In this document: positions 3,641 through 35,490 of the stretch, one piece after another
Layout of the letters: the number at the start of each line of letters is the position of its first letter
Numbering within the stretch: the first letter of the stretch is position 1
Assembly: GCA_002364005.1 (NCBI GenBank)
Contig: DEXG01000023.1
Span: forward strand, 94,702 to 158,701
Direction: 5' to 3'
DNA length: 64,000 nt
DNA from: Phycisphaerales bacterium UBA3190
GTDB lineage: Bacteria; Planctomycetota; Phycisphaerae; Phycisphaerales; UBA1924
Made by a program: the position numbers and the translations under genes
Notes under the pieces: model-generated
Seen by the model: the letters and a program-made list of their open reading frames with translations, nothing else
The model's database searches: none
Told to the model about the DNA's origin: nothing

Positions 3641-3712
3641 GCGGGTGTAGTTCAGTGGTAGAACGTCAGCTTCCCAAGCTGAATGTCGTCGGTTCGATCC
3701 CGATCACCCGCT
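3641..3712 (+). tRNA. tRNA-Gly (anticodon CCC), CCA not encoded
   Basis: Hand-folded cloverleaf: acceptor GCGGGTG/CACCCGC, D stem GTTC/GAAC, anticodon stem TCAGC/GCTGA with loop TTCCCAA, 5-nt variable loop, T arm GTCGG-TTCGATC-CCGAT. Confidence 0.9.
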
Positions 3713-3823
3713 TTCATAAGTCTCGTAAAAACAAGTGTTTATGCGAGGCTTTTTCTTTTGCACTACTTCCGTCCGCACTACAAAATGCCCTATGTAGTGC
3801 AGATTCGACCCAAATGTAGTGCA
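3671..3823 (+). repeat. att junction 1: 45-nt tRNA 3' half plus about 110-nt conserved island arm
   Basis: 3671-3715 is identical to 11845-11889 and 35338-35382. 3716-3823 is visibly homologous to 11890-11997 and 35383-35490 and contains four GTAGTGC/GCACTAC sites. Confidence 0.75.
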
Positions 3824-3867
3824 CTCTGCAACCTCTTGCCTTCCTTTGGTCGGGGCAGATATGTCGC

Positions 3868-4374
3868 TCAGCCGTTGATCGGGATGGCTCCTGATGCACG
3901 TTCGCCATCCGCCGTTTCGATCTCAATCCAAAGTGAAAGACCTGGTCTGAGTTCAGAAGGAACTTCGACTTCTGCGTGGTAGTCCACACTGTTCCACATT
4001 GCCTTGCTCTTCAGTGTTCCAGTTGCTGCCTGGTCTCCGATCCAGACTCGGATTGCAACCGGCTCAGGGCCCGCGGTGGTTTCGATATCGAGATGCATGA
4101 CTGCCCCTGGCTCGATATCTTCACCCATCTTGACGCTGAGTGTGGTACCGGCGATCGTCACAGAGCCGAGGTCGTATTCAGAACCATGATCATCCTGCTC
4201 CTCTTCAGCGTGGTTGTGGTCTTCGTGTCCGTCATCGCCGTGGTCGTGACCCTCGTGGTTGTCGTGATCCAAGTGGGAATCTGTGTCAGGTGCTTCCGAT
4301 TCGTTGCTACACCCACCGAGAAAGAGCATGCCGGTGATTGTGGAAGCGAGGAGCAGTTTAGTGAGATTGTTCAT
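3868..4374 (-). CDS. His/Asp-rich metal-binding lipoprotein
   Basis: Lipobox LFLGGC, then an HLDHDNHEGHDHGDDGHEDHNHAEEEQDDH tract and a beta-rich C-terminal domain. Last gene of the RND operon. Confidence 0.7.
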   Translation of the reverse strand: MNNLTKLLLASTITGMLFLGGCSNESEAPDTDSHLDHDNHEGHDHGDDGHEDHNHAEEEQDDHGSEYDLGSVTIAGTTLSVKMGEDIEPGAVMHLDIETTAGPEPVAIRVWIGDQAATGTLKSKAMWNSVDYHAEVEVPSELRPGLSLWIEIETADGERASGAIPING

Positions 4375-4402
4375 GTCAGTTTTCCTGAAAATTGAGTGGG
4401 TT

Positions 4403-7400
4403 TTAAGTGGACTGCTTCCGGCGGAGCTTGCCGGCTAGACGGGAACGAAGCGACGGCGAAGTTCGCTGTCGCGGTTCTGGGTTGTGCCCGAACACAAGCG
4501 AGTAGCCGGCGGGGACGACGATGAGGTTTAAGAACGTCGAGGTCAGCAGTCCCCCGAGCGTGACGATGGCCAGCGGCGCAAGCAGCTCGCTACCAGGCTC
4601 GCCAGCGGCGAGTGCGAGCGGAACCAGCCCGAGAGCAGCAGAGATCGCAGTCATCAGGATTGGCACAAGCCGCTCCATCGACCCTTGAACGATCGCTTCA
4701 CCCATCGGCACATCCTCGGCCTCCATGAGATGGTTGTAGTGATTGATAAGCAGGATGCCGTTACGCACCGCAATCCCAAACAGTGTGATGAATCCCACGA
4801 GACTTGCGATCGAGATCACCGGTGGAACATACCCGCCGCCGATACCGACTAGTGCCAATGTATTGCTGATCGCTCCGGCACCTTCGGTCAGATAGATCGA
4901 TGCGATACCGCCAATGAGCGCGAGCGGCATGTTGAGCATGACGAGGACAGCGGCTCGCATCGAGCCTGTAGAGATTTGGAGGAGCATGAGCATGATGAGT
5001 GCGACGGCCACACCAGCGACGAGGATCGTACGTGATGCGGACTGCTGCGCCTCGAACTGTCCGCCGTACGAAACTGTCATCCCGGCTTCTTGGACGATTG
5101 GATCAACACGTTCCTGCACTTGAGCGACGAGATCACCGAGGTTCGATCCTTCAGCGACATTGAGAGAAATGACCGCCTTCCGCTGAGCATTCTCGCGAGT
5201 GATTAAGTTACTCGAGCGCTCGGGTCCGATGTCAGCAACATCACTAAGACGCACGGTTGCGCCGCCGCGTCCGCGAAGTAGTAGATCACGCACCTGCCGC
5301 ACCGATTCTCGATCGGCGGCCGCGAGACGTACAACGATGTCATACTGGCGGACGCCCTGATTGACGGTGTCGACAACCTCTCCGTATATCGCTTCACGGA
5401 CCTGTTCGGCGGCATCCGCCGGGCTAAGACCAACTGCAGCCAATTCCGCGTGGCGGTAGCGGATCGGGAGCGAAGTAATCATGACTTCACGATTGGCATT
5501 CACATCCCTGGCACCCGGGAGCGATTGTAACTCGCCTTCGATGGCTTTGGCGACACGACGAAGCTCTGATAGGTCCTCGCCGAATACATTGATCGCGACG
5601 GCGGCGGGAGTTCCCGAGAGGACATGGCTCAGGCGGTGCTCGATCGGTTGGCCGACCATGGTCGTGATGCCTGGGATTGATGCGAGAATGCGGTCGATCT
5701 CATCACGCACCTCTACTCGTGAACGCCCTGCATCGACCGTGACCTCGACCTCCGAGTTACTGACCGGTTCGGCGTGTTCATCACGCTCGGCTCGTCCAGT
5801 GCGGCGTGACACCGACCGAACACCATCGATCTCGACGAGCTGCTTCTCCACCTCGGTCGCGAGCCGGTCGCTTTCGACAATCGATGTACCGGGAGGCGCG
5901 AGGAGAAACACGGTAAAAGTCCCTTCGTTGAAGGAGGGCAAAAATGATGTGCCGAATGTGCTCGCCAGAAGCAACGCTGCGGCGGTGACCAGGCCCGCAG
6001 CTCCCAGTACCCATGCTCGGAACTGGATCGCGGATCGAAGAGCCGGCTCATACCCACGCTTGAGTACACGCACGAGAAAACCGTCACGATCTTCGTGTGT
6101 CCCGCCGAGCTTACCCTTGAGCAGGAAGCGGCACATCGCCGGGACGACCGTGAGGGCGACCACAAGGGACGCGAGGATAGAAATCATGTAAGTCAGCGCG
6201 AGCGGCTGAAAGAATCGCCCCTCGAGCCCCTGAAGAAACAGGAGCGGCAGAAAGACCATCACAATGATCACTGTCGCAAAAACCATCGCGGGTCTGATCT
6301 CATTACTGGCGTCAAAAATCACCTCTGTAAATGGGCGACGATCGGATTCAACCATCGCACGGTTCTGTTTGAGGCGTCGAAAGACATTCTCTACATCAAT
6401 GATCGCGTCATCGACCAGAACACCAATCGCGACAGTCAAGCCACCGAGAGTCATTACATTGAGCCCAAGCTTCATCGCATCCATCATCAGCAGACCGACA
6501 GCGAGCGAAATTGGAATAGCCGTGAGCGTTATGAGCGTCGTTCGTAGATTCATTAGGAACAGCACAAGCACGACCAAAACGATGAGGATGGCTTCGCCTA
6601 GCACTTTGGTCACGTTATGGACCGCGCGATCGATGAAATGCGACTGCCGAACCACGTCTCGATTCAGTACAATGCCCGCAGGGAGCGTTGGCTCTATTTG
6701 ATCAAAGAGCGCATCGAGGTTGTCGGTAAGGGCGAGGGTGTTGGTGCCGGGCGATTTCTGGATCGACAAGATGACTGCCGGATTGCCACCTTCTGAGGCA
6801 GTGCCTCGTTTGAGCGCCGGACCCAGACGAACATCGGCAACCTGCCCAATCGTTACGGCTACACCTTCGTGGTACTTGATGACCGAGTTGGCGATGTCTT
6901 CCGACCCCGTCACTCGGCTCTGCTGACGAATCGGAATCTCGAAGTTATCGACATTGACGAGATAGCCGCCGCTTGCGGTACTATGCGCCCCGCCTGCGGC
7001 TTCAACCACATCAGTAATTGTGAGGTCGTAGAGACGTAGTCGCTCTTGGTTGACATTGACCTGATACTCCGGTAACTCGCCACCGATTGCGACCGCTTGG
7101 GCTACACCGGGTACGGAGAGAATCTTGTTCCGAAGATCGAAGTCGGCATAGGATCGGAGTTCCATCGGATCGACGGATCCATCTGGAGAAGAGAGTGAGA
7201 CGAGCATGATCTCGCCGGCGATTGATGTAATCGGGGTTATGAACGGCTCAACCTCGTCGGGGAGGTTTTCTCTTGCGGTAACGAGCCGCTCTGCCACGAG
7301 TTGCCGTGCGTCGTATAGATCGGTCCCCCAGTCCAAATCAACCCACACGATGCCGAGGCCGATGGCGCTGGCGCTGCGGACACGTCTGACACCTGTCATG

Positions 7401-7624
7401 CCATTCACAGCAGACTCGATGGGAAAAGTAACATACTGCTCGACCTCGTCGGCGGCGAGCCCGCCTGACTCGGCCATGATGGTCACGGTTGGTGCATTGA
7501 GCTCCGGGAATACATCCACGCTCATACGCGGGAGCCGGTAGCCGGCGTACCCGACAACCATAACGGCAGCGATGAGAACAAGCGATGAGTACTGGAGCGA
7601 GAATCGGATGACTGCTTTCAACAT
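4403..7624 (-). CDS. Heavy-metal efflux RND transporter, CusA/CzcA family
   Basis: 1073 aa with the typical 12-TM / two large periplasmic loop layout and RND conserved stretches (for example VDDAIIDVENVFRRL and FGIAVRNGILLINHY). Confidence 0.95.
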   Translation of the reverse strand: MLKAVIRFSLQYSSLVLIAAVMVVGYAGYRLPRMSVDVFPELNAPTVTIMAESGGLAADEVEQYVTFPIESAVNGMTGVRRVRSASAIGLGIVWVDLDWGTDLYDARQLVAERLVTARENLPDEVEPFITPITSIAGEIMLVSLSSPDGSVDPMELRSYADFDLRNKILSVPGVAQAVAIGGELPEYQVNVNQERLRLYDLTITDVVEAAGGAHSTASGGYLVNVDNFEIPIRQQSRVTGSEDIANSVIKYHEGVAVTIGQVADVRLGPALKRGTASEGGNPAVILSIQKSPGTNTLALTDNLDALFDQIEPTLPAGIVLNRDVVRQSHFIDRAVHNVTKVLGEAILIVLVVLVLFLMNLRTTLITLTAIPISLAVGLLMMDAMKLGLNVMTLGGLTVAIGVLVDDAIIDVENVFRRLKQNRAMVESDRRPFTEVIFDASNEIRPAMVFATVIIVMVFLPLLFLQGLEGRFFQPLALTYMISILASLVVALTVVPAMCRFLLKGKLGGTHEDRDGFLVRVLKRGYEPALRSAIQFRAWVLGAAGLVTAAALLLASTFGTSFLPSFNEGTFTVFLLAPPGTSIVESDRLATEVEKQLVEIDGVRSVSRRTGRAERDEHAEPVSNSEVEVTVDAGRSRVEVRDEIDRILASIPGITTMVGQPIEHRLSHVLSGTPAAVAINVFGEDLSELRRVAKAIEGELQSLPGARDVNANREVMITSLPIRYRHAELAAVGLSPADAAEQVREAIYGEVVDTVNQGVRQYDIVVRLAAADRESVRQVRDLLLRGRGGATVRLSDVADIGPERSSNLITRENAQRKAVISLNVAEGSNLGDLVAQVQERVDPIVQEAGMTVSYGGQFEAQQSASRTILVAGVAVALIMLMLLQISTGSMRAAVLVMLNMPLALIGGIASIYLTEGAGAISNTLALVGIGGGYVPPVISIASLVGFITLFGIAVRNGILLINHYNHLMEAEDVPMGEAIVQGSMERLVPILMTAISAALGLVPLALAAGEPGSELLAPLAIVTLGGLLTSTFLNLIVVPAGYSLVFGHNPEPRQRTSPSLRSRLAGKLRRKQST

Positions 7625-7627
7625 GAC

Positions 7628-9097
7628 TTAATCCTCCCCTTCGTGGAAGGTGCCGTCGGAGTGGAAGTGGCCACCCTTCTGGATCGATCCGCTGGTCGCG
7701 AGCATAAGTTGGAAAGCCCCGTCAAGGACTACCTCGTCGCCGTCACGAACCCCGCTGAGCAGCACGACCCACCGGCCGTCATCTTTACCGAGGTCCGCTT
7801 CCATGCGAATCGCTTCATTGGGATTGTCGGGAGCCCGACGGAAGATCACTGGTGAGAGACCATCACGCTGTACGGCAGCAAGTGGAATTGAAACCTCGGG
7901 AGAGGCCGTGGCATCGGTCACAATCTCAAGCTGAGCCGAGACGCCCGGGCGTGCCCAAGAACTGAGTTCGTCGGGGACAACGAAGAGCTCAAGCGTGCGA
8001 TCGTTGGGATCACCGGCAAGCCCGAGGGTGAGCGCGCCATTCATCGTGTCTTGCAACGGCACTGCTCGACCAACGGCGGTAGGCGTCGGGGGAACGATCC
8101 GAGCGAGCAGGCCGTCCTTGAGCACGCCAAGATCACTCTGTAGACCAGATGCCCGGAAACGGAGCCGGTCAGGCTGCACCACCGTCATCACAGGCGTTTT
8201 CTCATCGGCCCATGATCCGTTTGTCAGGCCCAACGCCTCCACGACACCCGCCTCGGTCGCGACGACCTCAATCGTGTTAACTGCAGCCCACCTGGGTTCA
8301 GTCCCGTGGTCTGTTTCGACTGTGGAAGCAAGTTGCTCTCGATCGAGCGAGACGATTGCTGATGCCGAATCCAGCAGGTAGTTCAGTCGAGCCGCTGAAG
8401 CCCGAAGATCCGCCTCGGTTTGCTGACGATTGGCGTGCAGTTCAGCTTTCTTCTCCTGCACGCTTGCAAGCTCTGCCCTGTTGCTCGCGACCGCCGCTCT
8501 CGCCTGGGCGAGTTCGTCTATACGGCCGCCACCCATCTCGCGCACGCTTCTTAGCTGGTCGACACGCTCGTTCCATACAGCAACACTCTCATGGAGACTC
8601 TCTTCGTGCTGTTCGTGTGCCGCAAGGAGCGGCTCAAATGTTTCGAGCCGCGCACCAAACCTCTGGATTTGTGCTTCCGCATCGGCGAGTTGCTGCTGCA
8701 TATCGCGCCACGACGGAGAGTCGATGCGGTAGAGTACATCCCCAGCTTCCACTCGTTGGAACTGCTCTGCGAGCAGTTCGACGCGGCCCGGGACTGCCGT
8801 GCGGTACTCTCGGCGCGCTGTAGGCAGATACTCGAAACGCCCTGGCACGCGGAGGGTCTGCTCGATCCGCCGACGTTCGACCTTGACAAAGCTGATACCA
8901 AGATTCGACCGTACTGCGGAAGGAATAGCGACGCGGTCGGTACCGGTTGCCATGGCCTCGGTTTCTGACGAGTGGTCGTGCCCGTCGTCCTCGCCGTGCT
9001 CGACAACTCTTTGCTCGATGGATTCTGATCGATCGCAGGACACGAGGAACAAGGCGGCGATCGAGAACACTACTAAAGCGATCATAGTCCGGATCAT
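7628..9097 (-). CDS. Efflux RND periplasmic adaptor (MFP, CusB/CzcB-like) with a His-rich N-terminus
   Basis: Signal/lipobox (LFLVSC), a long coiled-coil hairpin and beta-barrel domains. Lies 3 nt upstream of the RND gene. Confidence 0.9.
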   Translation of the reverse strand: MIRTMIALVVFSIAALFLVSCDRSESIEQRVVEHGEDDGHDHSSETEAMATGTDRVAIPSAVRSNLGISFVKVERRRIEQTLRVPGRFEYLPTARREYRTAVPGRVELLAEQFQRVEAGDVLYRIDSPSWRDMQQQLADAEAQIQRFGARLETFEPLLAAHEQHEESLHESVAVWNERVDQLRSVREMGGGRIDELAQARAAVASNRAELASVQEKKAELHANRQQTEADLRASAARLNYLLDSASAIVSLDREQLASTVETDHGTEPRWAAVNTIEVVATEAGVVEALGLTNGSWADEKTPVMTVVQPDRLRFRASGLQSDLGVLKDGLLARIVPPTPTAVGRAVPLQDTMNGALTLGLAGDPNDRTLELFVVPDELSSWARPGVSAQLEIVTDATASPEVSIPLAAVQRDGLSPVIFRRAPDNPNEAIRMEADLGKDDGRWVVLLSGVRDGDEVVLDGAFQLMLATSGSIQKGGHFHSDGTFHEGED

Positions 9098-9582
9098 CCC
9101 TCACCCCCTTCACCATCCGCGACCTGCGCGAATGCTTCTTGGAGGCGATCGACGAGATCACTCACCGAAGGCACGCCATCGGGTCCTTCATACATACGGC
9201 AGCCCATCGAAGGAGTCTTCGGTGCTTCCGTGCCGAACAGGTCGGATTCATTCACTAGAACCGTCGGAGCGGGATATCCGCGGCGGAGGTCCGATGAATC
9301 CAAAGACTGCTGATCGATCTGCACAAGATCCAAGTCTCGACCGACTACTCTGATCGCCTGCTCGAGCCTCTCTTTCATGAGTGGTGTGAGCGGGCAGCCT
9401 TCGAATCCGAGAAGTGTGATTGACATGGCTGTATCTCTATCGCTAGGAATAATGTTTGCTGGAATTTGACTGTTTGTGGTCACATGAAGCTGTCGTTGAT
9501 CCGTTGCCCCTGTGCAGGCGGCCAGTGTCAGCGGCAGAAGTGCTGCTAGAACGATCGCGTTCGTCTGTTCCAAATATTTCAT
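9094..9582 (-). CDS. Small lipoprotein, possibly thioredoxin-like fold
   Basis: Lipobox LTLAAC, with ATGA-type overlaps to both neighbours (9094/9097 and 9579/9582). Single CP motif (GFEGCPLTP). Confidence 0.6.
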   Translation of the reverse strand: MKYLEQTNAIVLAALLPLTLAACTGATDQRQLHVTTNSQIPANIIPSDRDTAMSITLLGFEGCPLTPLMKERLEQAIRVVGRDLDLVQIDQQSLDSSDLRRGYPAPTVLVNESDLFGTEAPKTPSMGCRMYEGPDGVPSVSDLVDRLQEAFAQVADGEGGEG

Positions 9583-11063
9583 GGGGATGCCTCCTCGGCT
9601 GGCGTGTCGCCTCGCGCCGCGGTGTATGGTGTGTTTGTTTTTGTCGTGTCATATTCGGTCGCTGGCTCGATAGGCGCGGGAGGTTTCGGCTGATCCGGCC
9701 CGAGCAGTCTCATACGCTCGATTTCAGCATTCAATTCGGCTAGGCGCAAATCAAGCAGCTGGCTCTTGACCTCGAAGCGACGCGATACCGTCTCCAGCAG
9801 AATCAGCGTGTCAACTTCGCCGAAATCGATGAGCTTTTCAACTTCCCTCGACTGTTCCTCAAGCATCGGGACCAACTGCGTTTCGAACGCTTCGAGTTGG
9901 GTGCCAGCTGCAATAATCGCTGCATTCGTTGTGGCAAGCTCACGTGTGAGTTGCTCGAAGGTGATTTCCGCTGCGGCGCGAGCAACTTCGCGCTGTGCTC
10001 TCGCTTCAGCAATTCCAGCTCGGTTTGCAATAAGAATCGGAATCGGAAGTGATAAGCCAAGCAGAAGGCGGTCGTCGTTGTCTTCGCTGCCGTATCCACT
10101 GCCGATCGTGATATCCGGGTACTGCTTGCGGATCTCCAGGCGGAGTGTTTCCTCTGCGGTTTGGTACTCTGCACGACGCACCGCGAGCGATGTATTCGCC
10201 TCAATAAGCCGATGCAACTCGTCCGTGAACGACACTGACTCGCTGGGTGAGAGCGAGGGGATGAGCTCAATGTCAATTGATGGCGGTAAGCCAAGCAACC
10301 CAAGCAGATCAACTCGGGCTTGGGACGCCGCAAACTCAGCCTGAGCAAGTCTGCCGCGAGTCTGCACGAGTTCGGCACGTATGAGCCGGGCCTCGATACG
10401 GGTAAGTTCGCCGGCCTCTTCGAGCCTGTCGGTGATGGATCCGATCCTCTCGACCTGCCCGATTACGTCGCTCAGCAGACGAACGCGTTCATCGGCTACC
10501 GTCCACTCGGCCCACGCCGATCTGACACGAGCACGCATGGTCCACTCCGCGTCCACGATGCGCCTTAGCTCGGCCTCGTAGGAAGCTCCGGCGCGATCTT
10601 TGGCCACGCCCAACCGTCCGGATATCGGAACTGTGAAGCTGAGTGCTAGGCCATACTCGAACGGCCCCGAAGGCGACAAGATCTCAGCACCGTCGAAGCC
10701 GAACTCTGGGTCTTCCCATAGCCCCGCGGTTTCGTAGTCGGCGAGCGCAACGCCTGCCGCAAGCCTTGCCAATCGGAGATCGGCGTTGTAGAACAACGCG
10801 AGGACTTCACCCTCCGCCGATGACAAACCATCGGTTGGATCAAAGTTATCTGGCGTATCGCCACCAGATTCGTCCAGGCGGTTGAGGAATGCGTCGATCG
10901 AATCTGCGGCGTCTAGCCGGCTCTCAATTGTGTCTCGATGTGATGTGAGGTCGAGCGGTGCTCGCTCGTAGCTTTGGCAGCCGCCGAGCAATCCACCGGC
11001 CGCCGCCGCGGCGATGCCGGGCCAAGCCACCCGCCTCAAGAGCGGGGTTGTTGAGATGTCCAT
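9579..11063 (-). CDS. Outer-membrane efflux protein (TolC/CusC family)
   Basis: 494 aa with a duplicated alpha-helical/beta-barrel OEP pattern. First large gene of the operon. Confidence 0.9.
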   Translation of the reverse strand: MDISTTPLLRRVAWPGIAAAAAGGLLGGCQSYERAPLDLTSHRDTIESRLDAADSIDAFLNRLDESGGDTPDNFDPTDGLSSAEGEVLALFYNADLRLARLAAGVALADYETAGLWEDPEFGFDGAEILSPSGPFEYGLALSFTVPISGRLGVAKDRAGASYEAELRRIVDAEWTMRARVRSAWAEWTVADERVRLLSDVIGQVERIGSITDRLEEAGELTRIEARLIRAELVQTRGRLAQAEFAASQARVDLLGLLGLPPSIDIELIPSLSPSESVSFTDELHRLIEANTSLAVRRAEYQTAEETLRLEIRKQYPDITIGSGYGSEDNDDRLLLGLSLPIPILIANRAGIAEARAQREVARAAAEITFEQLTRELATTNAAIIAAGTQLEAFETQLVPMLEEQSREVEKLIDFGEVDTLILLETVSRRFEVKSQLLDLRLAELNAEIERMRLLGPDQPKPPAPIEPATEYDTTKTNTPYTAARGDTPAEEASP

Positions 11064-11147
11064 AAATTTAATTTCCTATCTGAGTGAACGACAAACCGCC
11101 CAATGCAGCTGGAGCTGCTCAGGGCACGATTTGGACTCAGACAGGAT

Positions 11148-11642
11148 TTAGAGAATCAAACGAGTAGTTGATACGATTGCAAGCCGCTGGGCACCACCTG
11201 GATCGAACCACTGCGGAATGCCCGGTGGACCGGTCCAAGACAGACCGTGCCCAAGTTCAGTGACAATCCAAGTTGGGGTTGGATGAACAGCATTCGTCTG
11301 CATCGAACCAATTTCTACTCTCGGAAGGCTGAGAAGCTCGACCAACTCGATTTCGATATCAATACAGGCACAATCCTCGCCGTGCTGATCAGCTGGCATC
11401 GGTCCAGGCAAGCCTTCTGCATGTCCGCAAGCAAGCTCGCACAATGCAAGCATCTCAGATGGCTGATGCTCGTGGCCGCCACCCAGACATAAAACGACTG
11501 CACCACCCAGACCTCCGTAGATAGCCTGAAAGCCGATGATCATGATCAAGAAGATGGAGAGCGAACGGTTATGCACGATACGAGTATACCTCGGCAATGG
11601 CGATGGGGTTGCTTGAGAGTCAGATGCTGAAGTGCAATTCAA
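11148..11642 (-). CDS. Cys/His-containing membrane protein (DUF2946-like guess)
   Basis: One TM helix followed by CLGGGHEHQ, CELACGH and HGEDCACID. Sits at the head of the efflux operon. Confidence 0.5.
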   Translation of the reverse strand: MNCTSASDSQATPSPLPRYTRIVHNRSLSIFLIMIIGFQAIYGGLGGAVVLCLGGGHEHQPSEMLALCELACGHAEGLPGPMPADQHGEDCACIDIEIELVELLSLPRVEIGSMQTNAVHPTPTWIVTELGHGLSWTGPPGIPQWFDPGGAQRLAIVSTTRLIL

Positions 11643-11676
11643 TTGCCACGGTTTCCCGTCTACCGGAGCTTCAGGT

Positions 11677-11997
11677 CAAACTGTCTTTGACGATGCGCTC
11701 TCTTCCTGATGTAGTGCAAAACCCCACAACAAAGCCCGCATTCGAGATCTCGGACCATGCGATCGCACCCAAGGCCTTGTCGCGGATCGAGTTGGGACGA
11801 CCTGGGATCAATCGGCGCGAACCAACATTCAGCGTTTGCCTTAGTTCCCAAGCTGAATGTCGTCGGTTCGATCCCGATCACCCGCTTTCGTAAGCTTCTC
11901 GCATGCAAGTGTTTATGAGGGCTCCGTTTTTTTGCACAACACCCGTTCTGCACTACAAATGATCCTTTGTAGTGCAGAATCATCCAAATTGCAGTGC
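11677..11997 (+). repeat. att junction 2: conserved upstream arm + 45-nt tRNA 3' half + conserved downstream arm
   Basis: 11677-11844 aligns with 35170-35337. 11845-11889 is identical to the tRNA 3' half. 11890-11997 aligns with 3716-3823 and 35383-35490. Confidence 0.75.
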
Positions 11998-12041
11998 TTG
12001 TCTTTGCGAGCGGATAATGGTTAAAGACCGTTCTCGATTTG

Positions 12042-14633: not shown

Positions 14634-14660
14634 AGTCCTTACATCGGTCTGTCGATCACG

Positions 14661-17427: not shown

Positions 17428-17493
17428 GGTGATTATTCTCCCGCAATGCATACATACTAGAAATTGGTGACGATGCTGGTGGTAAAATATTTC

Positions 17494-18123: not shown

Positions 18124-18144
18124 TGTGATACTCCTTCGAGTAAT

Positions 18145-18594: not shown

Positions 18595-18633
18595 GGCTCA
18601 TGTCCTATTGAGGGGATATATGTAAATCGCTTC

Positions 18634-22942: not shown

Positions 22943-22963
22943 GCGATGTCGTAGCTCTATCTA

Positions 22964-24486: not shown

Positions 24487-24487
24487 C

Positions 24488-27275: not shown

Positions 27276-27421
27276 GCTGCCCCTTCGTTCGCGCGTTTCT
27301 GGCCGTCGCTTTGCTGGTAGATGGTGCCCAGCCGAACCGAGCTCGCCTCGACGCACAACGAGGGCATGAGATGCCCCGCTGTGCGTCGGTGCGCTTGGCA
27401 TGGCCGGATAGGTGCAGCCCA

Positions 27422-27736
27422 TTAGCTCTCCGCGTTGACTTCGAGCACGCGGTTCATCGTGCCGAACTCGTTGGGAGCGCAGCCCTCACAGCCGTTGTAC
27501 GGGCGATCGCAACCGGCCTCACAGCACCACGCGCCGTCAACAACGAACTTGTACTCGTAGCGGCTCGGTGGGAGGTCAAGCTCGATCTCCCACCAACCCT
27601 GCCTGTCGCGCGTCATTGCGTGTGTGGTCGTGCTCCATTCGTTGAACGAGCCGGCGACAAATACTTCGCTCGCGTCAGGGGCAGCGAGTGTGATGCGTGA
27701 GACGGTGGTCTGGGTTGCTTGCTTGGGCATTGTCAT
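27422..27736 (-). CDS. CBM48 / AMPK-beta glycogen-binding-like (early-set) domain protein
   Basis: VFVAGSFNEWS ... WWEIELDLPPSRYEYKFVVDG pattern. Confidence 0.7.
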   Translation of the reverse strand: MTMPKQATQTTVSRITLAAPDASEVFVAGSFNEWSTTTHAMTRDRQGWWEIELDLPPSRYEYKFVVDGAWCCEAGCDRPYNGCEGCAPNEFGTMNRVLEVNAES

Positions 27737-27755
27737 GCTCCTTTCAGTAATGGTG

Positions 27756-28583
27756 TCAGTCGTCCTTGCTCTGGCCAGTCATGTCCATGGGGCGGGTTCC
27801 TGCGAGGGTTTGCCGTTGCTCAACAGTCAGAATCTGGGCAGCCTCGCCCACCGCTCTGATAAACGCGAGACGCTTCTCGGCACGCAGCGCTTCGATGGCG
27901 CGGACCTCGGTCTCGATGCGATTGATGTCGGGGGTAGACGCGGCCGTCAGCGACCACAGCACTTCTTCGAGGCCCTCGATGCGGCGGTCGTAATCCGACT
28001 GGGCGAGGATGATTTCCTGCTTCGTTTCGTTCAGACGAGTTTGTTGTTCGAGCGTCAGGTCGATGTGCTCGTTGTGGTCGAGGAAGAAGCCGGTAGCGCC
28101 GATGTGGTAGACGTGCGATGCGCCAGGAAAGCCCGGAAGGTCAGAGCGAACTTCCATCGCATCGGTGGTGCCATCGACATCTTTTGCCTTCGGACCCATG
28201 CCCATCATGCCACCCATGCCTCCCATGGAGTTGGCATGGGAGGGCCCCATTTCTCCCATGGCGTTCATGCCCATCTGACGCTTACCACCCATGTCGCCCA
28301 TGCCACCCATCGCGTTCTGCTTCTTGGAGGTGCGCGCGGGCGCGCCGTCCGAAGTCGATGAAACCGGTCGGTGATCGAGCTGTAGCGAGGCTTCAAGCTG
28401 GGCGACCTGAGCGCGGAGTGCTGCGAGCTCTTTCACGATGTCAGCGTTTCCGCTGATTTCATGCGTTTCGTGTTTGGTGTGGTCCCCATCTCCGTGGTTC
28501 TGTGCGATTGCCGGAGTTGCGAACATGGTGGCCGCGAACAGCAGCGGAATGAGGAAGGATATTTGTGCCTGAGAGTTTTTCAT
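27756..28583 (-). CDS. Periplasmic Met-rich LTXXQ (CpxP/Spy/ZraP-like) heavy-metal stress protein
   Basis: Signal peptide, MGGMGDMGGKRQMGMNAMGEMG...MGGMGGMMGMG tract, and two LTXXQ motifs (LTLEQ, LTVEQ). Confidence 0.8.
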   Translation of the reverse strand: MKNSQAQISFLIPLLFAATMFATPAIAQNHGDGDHTKHETHEISGNADIVKELAALRAQVAQLEASLQLDHRPVSSTSDGAPARTSKKQNAMGGMGDMGGKRQMGMNAMGEMGPSHANSMGGMGGMMGMGPKAKDVDGTTDAMEVRSDLPGFPGASHVYHIGATGFFLDHNEHIDLTLEQQTRLNETKQEIILAQSDYDRRIEGLEEVLWSLTAASTPDINRIETEVRAIEALRAEKRLAFIRAVGEAAQILTVEQRQTLAGTRPMDMTGQSKDD

Positions 28584-28800
28584 GATTCAGCTCCTTGTCA
28601 GGGGTAAACACGCCAACCGTCCTACTGGCCTCTGAATGCCACGGCGGCCAATTGACACACTAAAGATGCATATACTATCTTCTTTGAATGTATTGGGCAA
28701 CCGTGCTTTATCACTTGCCTGCGTGCTCACGCCTCCGATTGCCCATATCCTTCGAAGACGTTGATGAACAAAGTGGCCGCAATGGTCTCGAAAGGTCTGG

Positions 28801-29256
28801 ATGATTTCACGGCAGGTAGCAATGGCGGCGGTTTGCATGGGGCTCATCGGTCGCGATGGGTCTGACGAGTGCATGCAGATTCCCGAGCTTGTTGAGCTGA
28901 CCGGGATTTCGCGGCCAACTCTTGGCAAGGTCGTCAATGCACTAGCCCGGAAGAAACTCGTGAAGACCCAGCGTGGTGTCGGCGGCGGGGTGCGATTAGT
29001 CCGTTCTGTCGAGCAGGTCTCCCTGTACGACCTGTGCGTGGCCTTTGACGACCCGGTGATCGAGTGCCAATGTTCTTTCGGTTTCGGCCACTGCGCCGAA
29101 GAGGGCCCGTGCCCCCCCGGATGCCTATGCGTCGCGCAGCAGTCGAAGCAGTTGGAGTACCTCAAGAACACGAGCGTGTTTGATATCGCTGAAATGATGT
29201 TGCCGAGGCTCAAGAAGGCTGCTCGGTCAGCGAAGCGAGCGAAGCAGAATCGCTGA
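28801..29256 (+). CDS. Rrf2-family transcriptional regulator with a Cys-rich C-terminal region
   Basis: wHTH (IPELVELTGISRPTLGKVVNALARKKLV, GVGGGVRL) and a Cys cluster CQCSFGFGHCAEEGPCPPGCLC. Divergent from the LTXXQ gene. Confidence 0.85.
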   Translation: MISRQVAMAAVCMGLIGRDGSDECMQIPELVELTGISRPTLGKVVNALARKKLVKTQRGVGGGVRLVRSVEQVSLYDLCVAFDDPVIECQCSFGFGHCAEEGPCPPGCLCVAQQSKQLEYLKNTSVFDIAEMMLPRLKKAARSAKRAKQNR

Positions 29257-29317
29257 GCCTGATCCCTGCCCAAGTCGCCTGGGGATGCCCGCATTCCGGT
29301 TTCAGCTGGTTCTCGCA

Positions 29318-30211
29318 TCATGGTAGCAGATACTCCCATCCATAGACAAGCGAACCGCCGAAATGACCCGCGACTCCAACCAAAGCGGCAGACACCAGCA
29401 ACGCAGCCGTAGCGAATCGGCTCATCCTCTTGCATCTCGCGCGTTGTTCAACGGCGAACCACGCGATGCCTGCAGCAACCGCGACCGAGATCCCCAGTGC
29501 GCGGTGCCACCAGAACACCCACGACAACGTGCCCGAGTAATCGCTCGCAGACCCATGAAGCAAACCAAGCAGCACTGCCGCGACGGCCGAAAGCGCTCCT
29601 ACTGCTGTGAGCAGTCGAATGACCCCCTCGTTCCTCAATTGCTCGCGGGCGAGTCCTACAACCTCGACAAGCGCCCCGAGGAGCAGGAACGCGATCGGGA
29701 AGTGGATGACTACGACGTGGAGTCGACCGAGCATCGCTGTGAGTGACACGCCATGGTCTGTAGCGTGGTCGTGGTTCTCTTCGGGCGACTCACCGTCGTG
29801 ATCGTGGCCACCATCAGTCGCGCCGAGCCGGTCCGCGTCTGGCTGCCCGGCGACAGCAGCATCCTCAGGATGATCGTGATCATGCCCCTCCGCTTCGGGC
29901 TTGCTCTTGTCCTCCGGCATTGCCACAGGCATGACCCTCGCCAACGACTCAGTAAGAGCCTCCGGATTCTGTTTGAATCGGAGCACGCAACGCCGACAGC
30001 AGAAATACACACGCGTGCCATCATGGTCAGTGAAAAAGCTTGGATCGACCGCCTCATCCGGCGTCACCGGACACAGGGTATTGGCCAACCCCGTCTCTCC
30101 CCCCGTTCCGTCCGGGGAGGAGATCTGGGCCGCCAATACTGAGGCATCCACAATGAACACCAGCAACAGGAGCAGCGGTACCAAGAAACGTCGACGGTTT
30201 ATGGTGTCCAT
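29318..30211 (-). CDS. YHS/TRASH-domain + multi-TM (DUF2231-like) protein
   Basis: Signal peptide, CPVTPDEAVD...YFCCRRCVLRF (YHS-type), a His/Asp-rich linker and four C-terminal TM helices. Confidence 0.75.
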   Translation of the reverse strand: MDTINRRRFLVPLLLLLVFIVDASVLAAQISSPDGTGGETGLANTLCPVTPDEAVDPSFFTDHDGTRVYFCCRRCVLRFKQNPEALTESLARVMPVAMPEDKSKPEAEGHDHDHPEDAAVAGQPDADRLGATDGGHDHDGESPEENHDHATDHGVSLTAMLGRLHVVVIHFPIAFLLLGALVEVVGLAREQLRNEGVIRLLTAVGALSAVAAVLLGLLHGSASDYSGTLSWVFWWHRALGISVAVAAGIAWFAVEQRARCKRMSRFATAALLVSAALVGVAGHFGGSLVYGWEYLLP

Positions 30212-30228
30212 GCGTATTTTTCCTCGTG

Positions 30229-31242
30229 TTAGCTGTCGCTGTGACCGTGACTGCCATCGCTGTGATTCTCATGACCCTCCCGACCGTGGTCACTATCCAT
30301 CTGTTCTTTCTCGACCGAGAGATTACCCCGCGCGTCGAGGATGGACTTCCACGCCTTATCGAGTTGTGCGAGGTACTGTGCTGGATTCTCGATCACCTTG
30401 GGTTCGCACATTGCACAACAGAACCGGATGAGGCGGCCCGCAAGGACGATCTCGGAGGGCTCACCCATAGACCCGAGCTTGCCCCCGATCATGCACTTGT
30501 CGAGTGGGTAGTCCGCCCTCTGAGTATCGGCGGCGGCCCTATCAATCTCGGCGATGTAAGCGCCCGGGTCCTTTTTGAACTCCTTGACGCAGGACCTGCA
30601 GCAGAGGCGTATGAGCCGGTTGGCGTGGATCAGGTTGATCGCGATGTCCTCGCCATCCTCTGAGAGGGGCTCGCCTGAAATTGCGCAGGTCGTCATCGGG
30701 TAGTACGGAAGCTGATCCTCGATCATCTGCTCGTCGATCTTCTTGAAGTACTGTTCCTTGTTCTTCTCAAACCGACCCACGCACATATTGCAGCAGAACC
30801 GTACCTCGCGCCCGTCGATCTCTTTGACGACCGGGTCACCCATCGATCCCAGCGCCTCACCCGAGACCGGGCAGGCGGTGAGGGTGTAGGGCTGGCTCTT
30901 GACGGCGGTTGGGACGACGGTTTGCGCATCGGCTTGCGCGTGGTGTTCACCGGGCTCGTTGCCTGCTTTGGCGAGGGCAACGAACGCGTCGCGTTTCGAC
31001 TCATCCCACCCCATAAACTCCTTGTCGCACCCCGGGCAGCAGAACCCGACGGTCTCGCCCTTGTATACGACCGAGGGGACCCCCTCGACGATGGGCTCTT
31101 TCCCGATGGGGCACATGGTGTTCACGGGTTTTTTGTCGTCGTGCTGCGCGTGGTTGGCGTGGGAGTCGTGGTGGTCTTGCGCGAGGGATACAGGCACGCA
31201 GTAGGCGCACGCAATGACAGCGATTATCACTGAAGTTTTCAT
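30229..31242 (-). CDS. Periplasmic protein with four tandem YHS/TRASH metal-binding domains
   Basis: Four repeats of the CP..G.....(F/L)CC..C pattern, plus a His-rich C-terminus (HENHSDGSHGHSDS). Start at the signal peptide MKTSVIIAVIACAY. Confidence 0.8.
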   Translation of the reverse strand: MKTSVIIAVIACAYCVPVSLAQDHHDSHANHAQHDDKKPVNTMCPIGKEPIVEGVPSVVYKGETVGFCCPGCDKEFMGWDESKRDAFVALAKAGNEPGEHHAQADAQTVVPTAVKSQPYTLTACPVSGEALGSMGDPVVKEIDGREVRFCCNMCVGRFEKNKEQYFKKIDEQMIEDQLPYYPMTTCAISGEPLSEDGEDIAINLIHANRLIRLCCRSCVKEFKKDPGAYIAEIDRAAADTQRADYPLDKCMIGGKLGSMGEPSEIVLAGRLIRFCCAMCEPKVIENPAQYLAQLDKAWKSILDARGNLSVEKEQMDSDHGREGHENHSDGSHGHSDS

Positions 31243-31297
31243 GTGGAACTCCTTTGATTTTGCCCGGGTCGTCCGAGCGTGTTGGAAAAACGAAGCC

Positions 31298-31481
31298 TGA
31301 GCTCGGCCCATCCGCAGTAGAGGATGGGCACGACGAACCAGGTCAGGGATGCGACGGCCATCCCACCGAAGGTCGGGATGGCCATGGGGATCATGATGTC
31401 TGACCCGCGCCCCGAGCTTGTGAGCACGGGCAGCAGCGCGAGGATAGTTGTCGCGCTGGTCATGACGGCGGCGCGGATGCG
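31298..31481 (-). pseudogene. Remnant of the C-terminal end of an RND (CusA/CzcA-type) pump
   Basis: RIRAAVMTSATTILALLPVLTSSGRGSDIMIPMAIPTFGGMAVASLTWFVVPILY matches the last two TM helices of RND pumps. No upstream part of such a gene is present. Confidence 0.6.
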
Positions 31482-31705
31482 TGAGGGCACAGATGCCGAA
31501 GGCGACGGTGGGTTGAACGAGCGAGTCAGCGTGTGCGATGGGCGCGGGGCGAGCGGGTCACTCGAGCACCATATGAGCGTCAAAGACGAGGCGCACGCGA
31601 ACAGGATGGTCCGGTTCATGGCAGATGTCCTAGTGAGGTCTGGTCCGATTGAAAAGCATCGTGGAACGGTACGCGCAGCGCGTACCGTCCCTCAGGGACG
31701 CGTCT

Positions 31706-32140
31706 CTATCGTTGCCAGACGCCCAGGAGTGCCTGTGTCTGATTGTGCGAGAACCCCGCGCGGATCGAGCCCTTCCGGGCGATCGAGATCAGACGCGTGG
31801 GGAGTTCAGTGATGATGATCTGGATGGATGCGGGCGGCCCGCGAACCATCTGCAGCGAGTCGCGATCTCGCGATGGCATCGGGAGTGGCTCGTTGGGTGA
31901 CCGGTCATCGATGGGTTTGATGCCGCAGGTGCAAGGGCCGTTGCTCATCTTACAGAAGTTGTGGACGCTCTTGGTGTCGCAGCACAATACCTCGCGGATC
32001 TCTTCATGACATTCTGTCATCACGCACTGATCTGATCCCATCGCGAGCGCGTGGGACTTCGACGAGCTCCAAAGGGAATCCATCCCCCGCATCCCGAATA
32101 GGGATGCCGCGATAAGCAGGATGAGGTGGATGCGGGTCAT
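31706..32140 (-). CDS. Secreted Cys-rich hypothetical protein
   Basis: Signal peptide, then CVMTECHEEIREVLCCDTKSVHNFCKMSNGPCTCG. Divergent from the haloperoxidase-like gene. Confidence 0.45.
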   Translation of the reverse strand: MTRIHLILLIAASLFGMRGMDSLWSSSKSHALAMGSDQCVMTECHEEIREVLCCDTKSVHNFCKMSNGPCTCGIKPIDDRSPNEPLPMPSRDRDSLQMVRGPPASIQIIITELPTRLISIARKGSIRAGFSHNQTQALLGVWQR

Positions 32141-32439
32141 GTGCAGTTTCAGTCTATCGATTCGGGTTCATCCAAGCAACAATCAAGAAGGCGAAAGTAT
32201 TTCCAAAAAAATATTTCACCCGAGTTACGGAGGTAAACATGTGACAACTTTCGCGCGTGCGATATATATAGTAGCGAGGTTATCGGCGCGGTGGTCTATC
32301 GCGGTCATCTCTTCTTGAGTTGTGGCCAAAATCTGCCAGGCAGGGGCTTGAGTCACGAAACCAAATCTGTAGAGTGGTAGGGGGTATTTCTCGGGATCGA
32401 CACCCAATATCCTTCACTTTGGCCTCGTGGAGCAGCGTC

Positions 32440-34608
32440 ATGAATCTTTTGCTTTGTCAAGTTACCCTGTTCGCGGGGTTGGTCGGGTTGCCTACATCTG
32501 CCGACGCACAGACTTCCCGTTCACCCGCAAACCCGGATGCGTTGACAACGACCAAGATGCGTCCGCTCGAGCATCAATCCGCAGCGGTCCGACGCGATCT
32601 CGCAGAGCAGCTTGGGATCGAGCATTCTGTTGCGCGGATGTGGAGCGAGTTGTTGCTCGATTCGATTCGACGCGACTTTGCTCGCCCGACGATCCATTCG
32701 CGCAACCTGTATCACACATCCGCAGCGATGTGGGACGCGTGGGCAGCGTTCGAGCCCGGGACGGATCAGGTGTTCCATAACGAAACAATGATCGCTGACG
32801 ATGTGCAGCTCGCTAGAGAGGAAGCAATCAGTTATGCGATGTATCGCATCCTTCGTCATCGTTTCGCGCTCTCCCCAGCCGCCATCGAGATGTACCCTGA
32901 GTATGACATGCTCATGGGCGAGTTAGGGTACGACATCTCCATCACGGACACTGCTGGAGATACCCCAGCGGCCCTGGGGAATCGCATCGCAGAATCGGTC
33001 ATCCAGTTTGGTCTTACGGACGGGTCGAACGAGCAGCTCGATTACGCGAACCTGTACTACGAGCCAATCAATCCACCGTTGCTACCGGACTTCCCGGGCA
33101 ACCCGGACATGCTCGATCCGAACCGTTGGCAGCCGCTTGCACTCGAGTTCTTCGTGGATCAATCGGGCAACCCGATCCCAACAGGGTACCCGGACTTCCT
33201 GAGCCCGGAATGGGGCGAAGTGACCCCGTTCGCGATGGACCAAGACGATGTGCAGATCAAGCAGCGTGACGGGTTCACCTGGCAAATCTGGCACGACCCG
33301 GGAGATCCGCCATACATTAACGGCGAACCCGCAGAAGACCTGCGTTACAAGTGGGGATACGAAGTGGTCGTTACCTGGTCTTCACACCTCGATCCCGCGA
33401 CGGGGACCATGATTGACATCTCTCCCGCGACATTCGGGAACGCGCCTCTTCCATTGATCGCGGAGGAGACGGACTTCTATGACAAGCTCAACGGTGGTGA
33501 TTGGGGTGAGGGGTACGATGTGAACCCGAGCACCGGGTTGCCTTACGAGCCCCAGATGGTGCCCTTGGGTGATTATGCGCGTGTGCTCGCGGAGTTCTGG
33601 GCGGATGGTCCGGATTCAGAGACACCTCCGGGGCATTGGTTCTCGGTGCTTCATTATGTCACCGATCACCCGGAGCACAACGGGCAGTTCATGGGACAAG
33701 GCCCAGTCCTCGATCCGCTCGAGTACGACGTGAAGTCATACCTTGCGCTCGGTGGTGGGATGCACGACAGCGCGATTTCTGCGTGGTCCGTGAAGGGGTA
33801 CTACGACTATCCTCGCCCGGTTTCTTCCATCCGGTACATGTGCGATCGTGGTCAATGCTCTGATCCGAATATGCCGAGTTTCCACCCAGAGGGGATCAAC
33901 CTCATCCCTGATTACATCGAAGTGGTGACAACTGAGACTACCGCACCAGGTGAGCGTCACGCACACCTTGCTGGTAGCGAGGGCAAGATCGCGGTCAAGG
34001 CTTGGAAGGGTCCTGACTTCATCAACGACCCTGATACAGATGTCGCCGGTGTAGGGTGGATCCTCGCTGATAACTGGTGGCCTTACCAGCGTCCAAGTTT
34101 CGTCAGTCCCCCGTTTGCGGGTTATGTCTCAGGGCACTCGGTGTTCTCTCGCGCCGCAGCGGAAATCATGTCTATGTTGACTGGGAGCGAATACTTCCCA
34201 GGCGGTATGGGTGAGTTCGAAGCGCCCATGAATGAGTTTCTCGTCTTTGAGGACGGCCCATCCATGGACATCACCCTGCAATGGGCGAAGTACGCGGACG
34301 CGTCCGATCAAACATCCCTCTCGCGTATCTGGGGGGGGATCCACCCGCCTGCGGATGATCTCCCCGGTCGGTATATGGGTCTCGATATTGGTCCCGAAGC
34401 GTTCACAGAAGCACGTCGGTACTACAACGGGCTCAAGTCCTGTCCCGCTGATTTTATGCCCGACAGCACTTTGAACTTCTACGATGTCAGCGGGTTCATT
34501 GTAAGGTACCTAGCAGGTGATTTGCTCGCCGACATGAATGGCGATCTTCATCTCGACGCGATGGATGTGATGGACTTCCTCAACTCATATTCTGATGGCT
34601 GTCCATAA
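32440..34608 (+). CDS. Secreted PAP2-superfamily / vanadium-haloperoxidase-like protein with a C-terminal dockerin-like module
   Basis: PAP2 motifs (KGYYDYPRP, YVSGHS, SRIWGGIHPPADD). C-terminus CPADF...DMNGDLHLDAMDVMDFLNSYSDGCP. Start at signal peptide ATG 32440. Confidence 0.8.
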   Translation: MNLLLCQVTLFAGLVGLPTSADAQTSRSPANPDALTTTKMRPLEHQSAAVRRDLAEQLGIEHSVARMWSELLLDSIRRDFARPTIHSRNLYHTSAAMWDAWAAFEPGTDQVFHNETMIADDVQLAREEAISYAMYRILRHRFALSPAAIEMYPEYDMLMGELGYDISITDTAGDTPAALGNRIAESVIQFGLTDGSNEQLDYANLYYEPINPPLLPDFPGNPDMLDPNRWQPLALEFFVDQSGNPIPTGYPDFLSPEWGEVTPFAMDQDDVQIKQRDGFTWQIWHDPGDPPYINGEPAEDLRYKWGYEVVVTWSSHLDPATGTMIDISPATFGNAPLPLIAEETDFYDKLNGGDWGEGYDVNPSTGLPYEPQMVPLGDYARVLAEFWADGPDSETPPGHWFSVLHYVTDHPEHNGQFMGQGPVLDPLEYDVKSYLALGGGMHDSAISAWSVKGYYDYPRPVSSIRYMCDRGQCSDPNMPSFHPEGINLIPDYIEVVTTETTAPGERHAHLAGSEGKIAVKAWKGPDFINDPDTDVAGVGWILADNWWPYQRPSFVSPPFAGYVSGHSVFSRAAAEIMSMLTGSEYFPGGMGEFEAPMNEFLVFEDGPSMDITLQWAKYADASDQTSLSRIWGGIHPPADDLPGRYMGLDIGPEAFTEARRYYNGLKSCPADFMPDSTLNFYDVSGFIVRYLAGDLLADMNGDLHLDAMDVMDFLNSYSDGCP

Positions 34609-35169
34609 AGCGACTTAATGACTTAGACATGCGCCTTTACGAGTGTTCCGAGATATATGCTCTAATTTCGTGACCATGCAGTCGTACAGGCTCGCTTGGC
34701 CACATGCTAAGAATGTTATATTTTCAGCACAGTTGAGTTTAGCCAGGCAGAATCGATTCAGGAGGGCGTCTGCGAGCAGGAGCTTTATGTCGAACGAGCA
34801 GTTTCAATTCCTTTTTGAGATTCGATGTCTCAATCCATGCTCCTTTAGGATGTTGCGTATTGGTGCCACTTGAAATAGACTGGTGCCATATCGACGAGTA
34901 CCACAAGGGCGTTGATGTAGAAGCAACGGGCGGACTTTCCATGAACGTCGGTTAACCCCTATGAATTTCGTAGGCTCTTAAATTGCGTGCTACAAACATC
35001 ATCTGCTATCACGCATTTTGAACGACGCTGTGCCGCCCCAGCACAATGAGCATCTGCGAAGTAACGCGGATTCCATGGTGGACACTCACTGCACACTAGA
35101 ATTGCAATTTCGCGACTATGTAATACAAAATGAACTCAGAAACATCGTCAGTATGTTGTTCGACCCTGC

Positions 35170-35490
35170 CAAACTGTCATTGACGGCGCGTTCACATCCT
35201 GATGTAGTGCAGAACCCCGCAACAAAGCCCTCAATCGAGCCCTCGGGCCATGCGATCGCTCCCAAGTCATTGTCGCGGATCGAGTTGGGACGACCTGGGA
35301 CCAATTGGGACATGCCAACATTCAGCGTTTTCCTTTGTTCCCAAGCTGAATGTCGTCGGTTCGATCCCGATCACCCGCTTTCACAAGTCTCGCTTAAACA
35401 AGTGTTTATGCGAGGCTTGTTCTTTTTGCACTACACCTGGCCGCACTACAAATGGCCCTTTGTAGTGCAAATTCGTCCCAAATGTAGTGC
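35170..35490 (+). repeat. att junction 3: conserved upstream arm + 45-nt tRNA 3' half + conserved downstream arm
   Basis: Collinear with 11677-11997. The 45-nt core 35338-35382 is identical to the tRNA 3' half. Contains five GTAGTGC/GCACTAC sites. Confidence 0.75.

Follow-up and report, generated by a model that had tools for sequence, protein, structure and literature searches.

The 64,000-nt stretch of Phycisphaerales bacterium UBA3190 analyzed here (assembly GCA_002364005.1, contig DEXG01000023.1, positions 94,702 to 158,701 of the forward strand; hereafter, the window) contains a sole intact tRNA gene, tRNA-Gly(CCC), located at positions 3641–3712 of the plus strand (ARAGORN; Rfam tRNA, 71.5 bits). 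The 3' half of this gene is repeated further along the sequence, and the repeats delimit three segments, islands 1 to 3, which carry metal-efflux genes, copper genes, and defence and transfer genes, respectively. The region very probably represents a tandem array of three site-specific integrative elements inserted in tRNA-Gly(CCC), with four identical 45-bp cores.

Cores and attachment arms at the tRNA-Gly(CCC) gene

An exact-match search of the window located the 45-mer TTCCCAAGCTGAATGTCGTCGGTTCGATCCCGATCACCCGCTTTC at positions 3671–3715, 11845–11889 and 35338–35382, in every case on the plus strand and with 0 mismatches; 100 shuffles gave 0 matches. This 45-nt core opens with the anticodon loop's first base and closes 3 nt beyond the end of the tRNA. 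Copy 1 lies in the intact tRNA gene, which constitutes the left attachment (att) site, attL, of the array, and copies 2 and 3 correspond to the hybrid att sites of islands 1/2 and 2/3. A fourth exact core is found about 5 kb beyond the window end, at ~69,049–69,093 (20196–20240 of L001, a 10-kb rightward extension identical to the window across 15,147 nt; L-numbers label the compared sequence pieces). All four cores are identical at 45/45 positions, and only core 1 sits in an intact tRNA, with direct repeats of the tRNA 3' part at both array ends; the 30 nt upstream of core 2 differ from the tRNA 5' half. The units measure 8,174 nt (island 1), 23,493 nt (island 2) and 33,711 nt (island 3), and the total insert 65,378 nt. 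Sensitive blastn searches and fuzzy matching revealed no further or fossil cores or att sites inside the islands over 70 kb.

The sequences flanking the cores are also repeated. The ~108 nt downstream of cores 1, 2 and 3 (the P' arms of islands 1, 2 and 3; 3716–3823, 11890–11997 and 35383–35490, plus strand) are homologous, with 85% identity between copies 1 and 3 and 75–77% in the comparisons with copy 2. The 168 nt upstream of cores 2 and 3 (the P arms of islands 1 and 2; 11677–11844 and 35170–35337, plus strand) are 85% identical to each other, and resemble the sequence before the tRNA at a background level of ~52%. An original prediction, made from the letters of the window, had described the three exact direct copies, about 110 nt of homology downstream of each, and about 170 nt of homology before copies 2 and 3 that is absent upstream of the tRNA; the search and the alignments reproduce all three. 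It had also suggested a search for a fourth junction (upstream arm plus 45-mer) right of the window, where the core does occur, but the arm preceding it is not the 170-nt arm: it is an integrase-proximal arm with two TTGTAGTGC sites, at ~68,980 and ~69,003.

The arms share a short motif, TGTAGTGC, which is present in 15 copies in 70 kb versus 1.8 expected, 13 of them within 140 nt of a core. The layout of the P' arm comprises two inverted and two direct sites, all intact at copy 1 (GCACTAC at 3760 and 3775, GTAGTGC at 3794 and 3816) and copy 3 (35428, 35443, 35462 and 35484). At copy 2, two sites are intact (11950 and 11969) and two are degenerate, giving 10 intact P'-arm sites out of 12 across copies 1–3. 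Islands 1 and 2 have one GTAGTGC in each P arm, at −134 (positions 11711 and 35204), and the integrase-proximal arm contains two direct TTGTAGTGCA copies at −68 and −45 from core 4. Because 13 copies of TGTAGTGC are situated in the arms, they likely represent arm-type integrase sites. A scan of the P' arm for a terminator after the tRNA gave no canonical site.

At the right end of the array, core 4 is followed by an 84-aa gene (p84) and then an M14 peptidase gene. The sequence immediately after this core (20241–20350 of L001, ~69,094–69,200) resembles a P' arm, with 88% identity in the first 48 nt and all four TGTAGTGC sites mutated, and related genomes display a different native flank (TCGCAAGAGCCCGCTC...) at its place. 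It may be left over from an older element, or else represent the ancestor of the P' arm; the alignment of the right flank with the native flank of the relatives is too diverged to separate relic from native sequence.

Three open reading frames (ORFs) on the plus strand (3683–3982, 11597–11893 and 35018–35617) continue across the P arm, the core and the P' arm. None of them matches a family, and several public assemblies annotate a 180-aa version of the junction-crossing ORF as a gene. These ORFs are probably spurious.

The integrase and the gene content of the islands

The integrase is encoded in island 3 only, at its tRNA-distal end and outside the window (~67,677–68,921, minus strand; 18824–20068 of L001). 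It comprises 414 amino acids, with the start codon 128 nt from core 4. Pfam returned weak N-terminal SAM-like matches and PF00589 was undetected in this copy, and in NCBIfam residues 159–385 align to XerA (E = 9.5e-13), with XerC also matching; these matches fall on the catalytic domain. The family includes at least 427 clusters; its named members come from Planctomycetota, integrase is the name given to many of them, and PF00589 is recorded for many. Sequence and profile searches found no match to a solved structure. The AlphaFold model of a 93%-identical homologue (predicted local distance difference test, pLDDT, of 85) was matched by Foldseek to Tn1549 Int with an E value of 1.6e-8, and also to XerA, full-length lambda Int, IntI and Cre. 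This model displays the core-binding and catalytic domains of the tyrosine recombinase fold. It opens with three strands and a helix (residues 13–60) that would correspond to the arm-binding domain of the lambda/Tn916 type. The protein appears to be a lambda-type tyrosine integrase of a Planctomycetota-specific clade.

The active site was inspected in an alignment of homologues (P0001–P0120). Residues K283, R357, H381 and Y391 are invariant in 48 homologues. By manual reading, box I shows GFGQSDL / G-L-G-F-G-Q/A-x-D-L where the catalytic arginine would be expected, and a tyrosine seems to replace the first histidine of the HxxR motif; both features are conserved in 48 homologues.

The arrangement of integrase gene, two arm sites and 3'-half core recurs next to integrases 85–93% identical to this one in three unrelated host contexts (L144, L145 and L146). 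In L146, the T-arm of the half-tRNA is of a different, presumably host, type, which points to an exchange of strands 5' of the T stem. In several other Phycisphaerales genomes (L038, L086, L113, L028 and L011), a family integrase (37–59% amino acid identity) and two arm sites are located directly upstream of a complete tRNA-Gly(CCC) rather than a half copy; the att site of some relatives thus seems to include an entire tRNA gene. Beside the integrase gene of L113, the arm motif is GTCGTGC instead of GTAGTGC.

Island 1 carries a metal-efflux set on the minus strand (3868–11642; Pfam), composed of a 168-aa ORF, an RND pump (4403–7624), a membrane-fusion protein (7628–9097), a 162-aa ORF, an outer-membrane factor (9579–11063) and a 164-aa ORF. 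The 168-aa ORF beside the P' arm was considered as a backbone gene and rejected, as its only match is a weak ZrgA-like one that makes metal cargo more likely. The cargo of island 2 (CopA/CopB/multicopper oxidase and others; 12042–34608; Pfam) includes an HMA-MauE protein, a permease, CopB, a multicopper oxidase and a P-type ATPase. Among its further genes are those for a PP2C-type (SpoIIE-family) phosphatase, cytochromes, a ferredoxin reductase-like protein, an HD domain protein, a TRASH/YHS protein and a vanadium chloroperoxidase-like (VCPO/DUF6851) protein. A 126-aa ORF of this island (31239–31619, minus strand) matches just the final 60 residues (ACR_tran 959–1018) of an RND pump; this truncated remnant suggests that island 2 may itself be a patchwork.

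Pfam searches of all large ORFs detected no integrase, relaxase or transfer genes in islands 1 and 2, and a tblastn search of both islands with the integrase found no remnant of one (best E = 0.048). Each of the two islands has a core and P' arm on its left and a P arm and core on its right. Their cores are identical to that of the integrase-proximal arm and the TGTAGTGC motif is common to both, with a single perfect site in the P arms. Both islands fit the definition of cis-mobilizable elements (CIMEs), being att-flanked and devoid of recombination or mobilization genes (CIMEs and accretion are defined in PMC5704250). As they lack recombinase and transfer genes but possess both att arms with the shared TGTAGTGC motif, they would be CIME-like passengers.

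Island 3 opens with an HTH_17/excisionase-family gene (35614–35850, plus strand; Pfam HTH_17) that matches TIGR01764 above the cutoff (59 bits) and MADS1 just below it (72.5 bits), and is called mad1 by PADLOC. It overlaps a four-gene defence set (35847–45091, plus strand; Pfam and PADLOC) that encodes a DUF499 ATPase, a DUF3780 protein, a DUF1156 methyltransferase and a PLD-SNF2 helicase. The PADLOC matches are full-length, with 1381–1528 bits for the three large proteins and 242 bits for DUF3780. The HTH_17 protein could be either a recombination directionality factor or a MAD1-like regulator of the overlapped defence operon. Homologues of this gene head three defence-type operons, namely the DUF499 set (35614–35850), an SNF2 helicase (L113, 4765–4980) and a type I restriction-modification system (L148, ~4616–5069).

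Downstream of the defence set, a maintenance and transfer module (46356–55972, plus strand; Pfam) contains genes for ParA (46356–47450), an ArdC-like protein (48526–49563), a methylase fragment, a TrwC/MOBF relaxase (51120–53957; E = 5.5e-64) and a coupling-protein-like ATPase (54455–55972; TraG-D_C domain, E = 1.6e-5). The relaxase is ~30% identical to its best plasmid relatives, the MobF/TraI proteins of Planctomycetes plasmids. The remainder of the island within the window (55969–64000; Pfam, NCBIfam and Rfam) contains ORFs that match no family, along with a hit to the group II catalytic intron domain at 62725–62828 on the minus strand (RF00029, 48.1 bits, at the Rfam gathering level). No reverse-transcriptase ORF was seen near the intron domain, and L151 has this region at 84% nucleotide identity. 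Beyond the window, an AbiEii-like gene and a gene for an LmuB/SMC-like ATPase accompany the integrase gene. No mating-pore genes were recognised among the ORFs of island 3 with Pfam (including matches with E up to 1), NCBIfam or PADLOC. Because a mating-pair formation system of its own (VirB4-type ATPase etc.) was not found, the island is predicted to be an integrative and mobilizable element (IME), with integrase, relaxase and coupling protein, rather than an ICE (integrative conjugative element).

The Pfam results (RND efflux, copper genes, and defence genes with a relaxase) bear out the cargo given in the original prediction. Its description of island 3 as a defence/conjugation element holds for the defence genes and the relaxase, but conjugation has to give way to mobilization given the lack of recognisable mating-pore genes. 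Likewise, the repeated integration of related elements that it proposed is supported as far as the array is concerned, but only island 3 encodes an integrase. Because islands 1 and 2 have neither integrase nor transfer genes, they most likely ride on, or are served by, the integrase-bearing element.

Empty sites, movement between genomes and stability of the array

The presence or absence of the segments in related genomes, which the original prediction had anticipated, is observed in several forms. In OZ244206.1 (L094), from a related member of the Phycisphaerales, the tRNA-Gly site is empty: both flanks are syntenic with those of the array and nothing lies between them. The flank homologues are a 138-aa protein (p138) and an SH3-like protein (46% amino acid identity) on the left, and p84 (70%) and the M14 peptidase (72%) on the right. 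A similar arrangement occurs in L118, in the order p138, SH3-like gene, tRNA-Gly, (p84) and M14 peptidase. On the left of the array, an IclR regulator and an MFS transporter (window 1304–3425) separate the SH3-like gene from the tRNA only in the source genome; the gene abuts the tRNA in L094, L108, L118, L015, L043 and L098, and the IclR/MFS segment is a 2.3-kb insertion without att-like ends.

Island 1 is found next to the same tRNA in JAJDDO010000026.1 (L011 and L018), OZ246976.1 (L047) and CAXBJM010000001.1 (L098), with nucleotide identities of 94%, 98.6% and 97.4%, respectively. Its P' arm also adjoins the tRNA in L011, L047 and L098. The flanks in these three other species are unrelated to those of the window, or include an SH3-like protein with 38% amino acid identity in the case of L098. 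Because identities of 94–98.6% are found within unrelated flanks, island 1 has crossed between species even though it bears no mobility gene. In the JAJDDO genome (OFTM350), the island is followed by a different HTH-led element (73% amino acid identity), and island 2 is absent.

The metagenome contig L142 contains another integrase-less island, whose RND pump shows only 30% amino acid identity. Its P' arm is 89% identical to that of island 1, and its P arm 94–98% identical to that of island 2; judged from this comparison, the arms are far better conserved than the cargo. In L143, the same P arm and core (94–98% identity to the P arm of island 2) form the end of an array and abut the native flank, with the M14 peptidase, of a related species. 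A 33-nt terminal overlap of L142 was considered as the mark of a circle and rejected as assembler breakage at repeats.

A second locus, at tRNA-Gly(GCC), holds a copper island that shares 94% identity with island 2 across 10.7 kb. In L152 and L154, this island-2-like island comes after an intact tRNA-Gly(GCC), together with a DsbD flank. In L151 and L153, the same island (99.8% identity over 1,500 nt) is preceded by an integrase (59% amino acid identity), two arm sites and the 3' half of the tRNA only. Identity between the two versions breaks off precisely at the anticodon loop (5' edge). The locus is a natural polymorphism in which an integrase-bearing element is present or absent next to an island that lacks one. 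The core of this sister system is TTGCCAACGTGAATGTCGTCGGTTCAAATCCGATCACCCGCTTTC, and its copper island differs at the left end, where a 141-aa ORF is present; one and the same copper cargo is thus found on elements with two integration specificities.

These loci also bear on an alternative origin of the repeats, in which the tRNA 3' region was duplicated locally or underwent homologous recombination, without site-specific integration. Direct repeats, with ~110 nt of homology beyond the tRNA at all four copies, would be compatible with such an origin. It is nevertheless very improbable, since in every copy, and likewise at the tRNA-Gly(GCC) locus, the anticodon loop marks the exact start of the identity, and the intervening segments are unrelated cargo. 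Further arguments against it are the tyrosine integrase with matching arm sites at one end, the empty site in relatives, and the occurrence of the same arms at the same tRNA in other genomes.

The window is matched by contig PBNQ01000002.1 of GCA_002723305.1, and many Tara, UBA, JGI and Logan contigs carry its proteins in unchanged form. An assembly or binning artefact, in which repeats of 150–330 nt chained contigs of different genomes, would be conceivable for a metagenome-assembled source, the more so as the cores are exactly the points where short-k assemblies break (8,120-nt and 33,692-nt Logan contigs). These two contigs were considered as circles and rejected, as assemblers break at the repeated core and arm. 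An artefact is extremely improbable given that the order across all junctions is the same in assemblies made independently by different projects and with different assemblers (among them contigs of 427, 227, 101, 85 and 68 kb) and that the arms differ by 15–25%, enough to be resolved.

Several points weigh against a tandem array of site-specific integrative elements. The order of the islands is identical on all contigs of the source population (6–9 distinct neighbourhoods, 15–23 contigs per query protein), and a metagenome scan for junctions lacking island 3, that is, (tRNA, P1 or P2)–core–right flank, returned 0 matches, so that there is no direct sign of excision in this population. The mutated P'-like sequence after core 4 is not predicted by a simple model, which places the native flank there. 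The P arms of islands 1 and 2 have just one perfect arm site. The integrase family is devoid of the box I arginine at its usual position, as read manually from the alignment. The sole candidate excision factor, the HTH_17 protein, belongs to a type that heads defence operons and is doubtful as an excisionase; it may instead be a defence-operon regulator. Finally, no mating-pore genes were found in island 3.

The invariant order and the missing junctions would fit a fossil array, composed of three once-autonomous elements that integrated in succession and of which islands 1 and 2 then lost their integrase and transfer genes, with no movement any longer and the repeats as frozen scars. The two degenerate sites in the P' arm of island 2 point in the same direction, as does the existence of decayed arrays elsewhere. 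In L148 and L150, two RND islands, one with 81–86% nucleotide identity to island 1, are arranged in tandem with degenerate cores and arms between them. The degenerate junctions of L148 are situated at ~2,950–3,100 and 11,365–11,490 (reverse-complement coordinates) and after them come an HTH gene and a type I restriction system; L148 and L150 represent a decayed version of the same kind of array. In the present array, by contrast, the four cores are identical at every position while the arms differ by 15–25%, and 10 of 12 P'-arm sites at copies 1–3 are intact. The high identity of island 1 in three other species with unrelated flanks argues for a recent move without an integrase of its own, the arms of L142 are kept at 89–98% over unrelated cargo, and at the sister locus the integrase element is present or absent in near-identical strains. 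A fossil origin is, therefore, considered unlikely, and an array of site-specific integrative elements remains the preferred interpretation.

Proposed mechanism and relation to known systems

In the mechanism envisaged for this array, the integrase would bind the TGTAGTGC arm sites and the core, with strand exchange at or beside the anticodon loop. An incoming element would integrate into a resident element's att site, which corresponds to accretion. If the array is active at present, any pair of the four cores may recombine, and the integrase-less islands could be released singly as circles or jointly with the integrase-bearing element. The composite form might then be carried to new hosts from the origin of transfer of that element. 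A bolder proposal, which we consider rather improbable, is that the integrase-less metal islands are not decay products and form a dedicated satellite lineage with conserved arms and exchangeable cargo. Such islands would live off a lambda-like integrase specific to Planctomycetota, with an unusual active site, and spread from species to species on MOBF/coupling-protein elements that lack known mating-pore genes. If this were true, it would imply an undescribed route of DNA transfer in Planctomycetota; to our knowledge, conjugation between members of this phylum has never been reported.

The mobile elements of Planctomycetota are, as far as we know, hardly charted, and the locus provides a clean, fully delimited example of tRNA accretion in this phylum. 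It ties the chromosomal MOBF/coupling-protein modules of the phylum to a defined integrase, an att site and a candidate arm motif. It also shows that metal-resistance islands without mobility genes moved between marine Phycisphaerales species, and the anatomy of the array supplies a practical rule for the delimitation of islands in these genomes.

Sublocation classes for tRNA integration sites are reportedly due to Williams (2002), and lambda-type heterobivalent integrases are said to target the anticodon loop. The present system resembles such integrases in the block of identity from the anticodon loop to the tRNA 3' end and in the repeated arm-type sites on both arms. The predicted N-terminal three-strand-plus-helix, core-binding and catalytic domains are likewise those of lambda-type enzymes. 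By contrast, there is no sequence-level match to solved structures, the box I arginine is seemingly absent at its usual place, PF00589 is undetected in this copy though present in close homologues, and the integrase gene is tRNA-distal.

A comparable class is that of tandem islands at a single tRNA or tmRNA gene. The ssrA islands of Dehalococcoides reportedly stack in tandem with repeated copies of the 3' end of the gene. These ssrA-specific islands are the subject of PMC3146451. In the present array, two of the three units have no integrase.

The closest parallels are ICESt1/ICESt3 and the CIMEs of Streptococcus thermophilus (Pavlovic 2004; Bellanger 2011; both covered by the review PMC5704250), which also form site-specific tandem arrays with internal hybrid att sites between the units. 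As in the CIME-ICE and CIME-IME composites, members without recombination or transfer genes keep both att sites, the integrase element is placed at one end, and composite excision would be possible. Unlike the S. thermophilus CIME-ICE, the array resides in Planctomycetota and targets the anticodon loop and 3' half of tRNA-Gly rather than the end of a protein-coding gene. Its integrase belongs to a different clade, its partner element has no recognisable mating-pore genes, and its mobilization is a prediction. In addition, the islands without an integrase appear as a lineage that keeps its arms and varies its metal cargo, unlike simple one-off decay products.

Accretion as such is already known; the new aspects are the host phylum, the integrase clade and the candidate arm motif, together with an apparent lineage of arm-conserving metal islands and its apparent link to MOBF/coupling-protein modules without a known pore. 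MOBF relaxases, in many cases accompanied by a coupling protein, were recorded in a survey of chromosomes from Planctomycetes that detected no complete mating-pore system (10.1101/2024.01.22.576637). The assignment of island 3 to the IMEs agrees with this survey, as the island combines a MOBF relaxase and a coupling protein in the same manner. Unlike the surveyed modules, that of island 3 is part of a delimited element with att sites and an integrase, and is accompanied by comparative evidence that the family moves between genomes.

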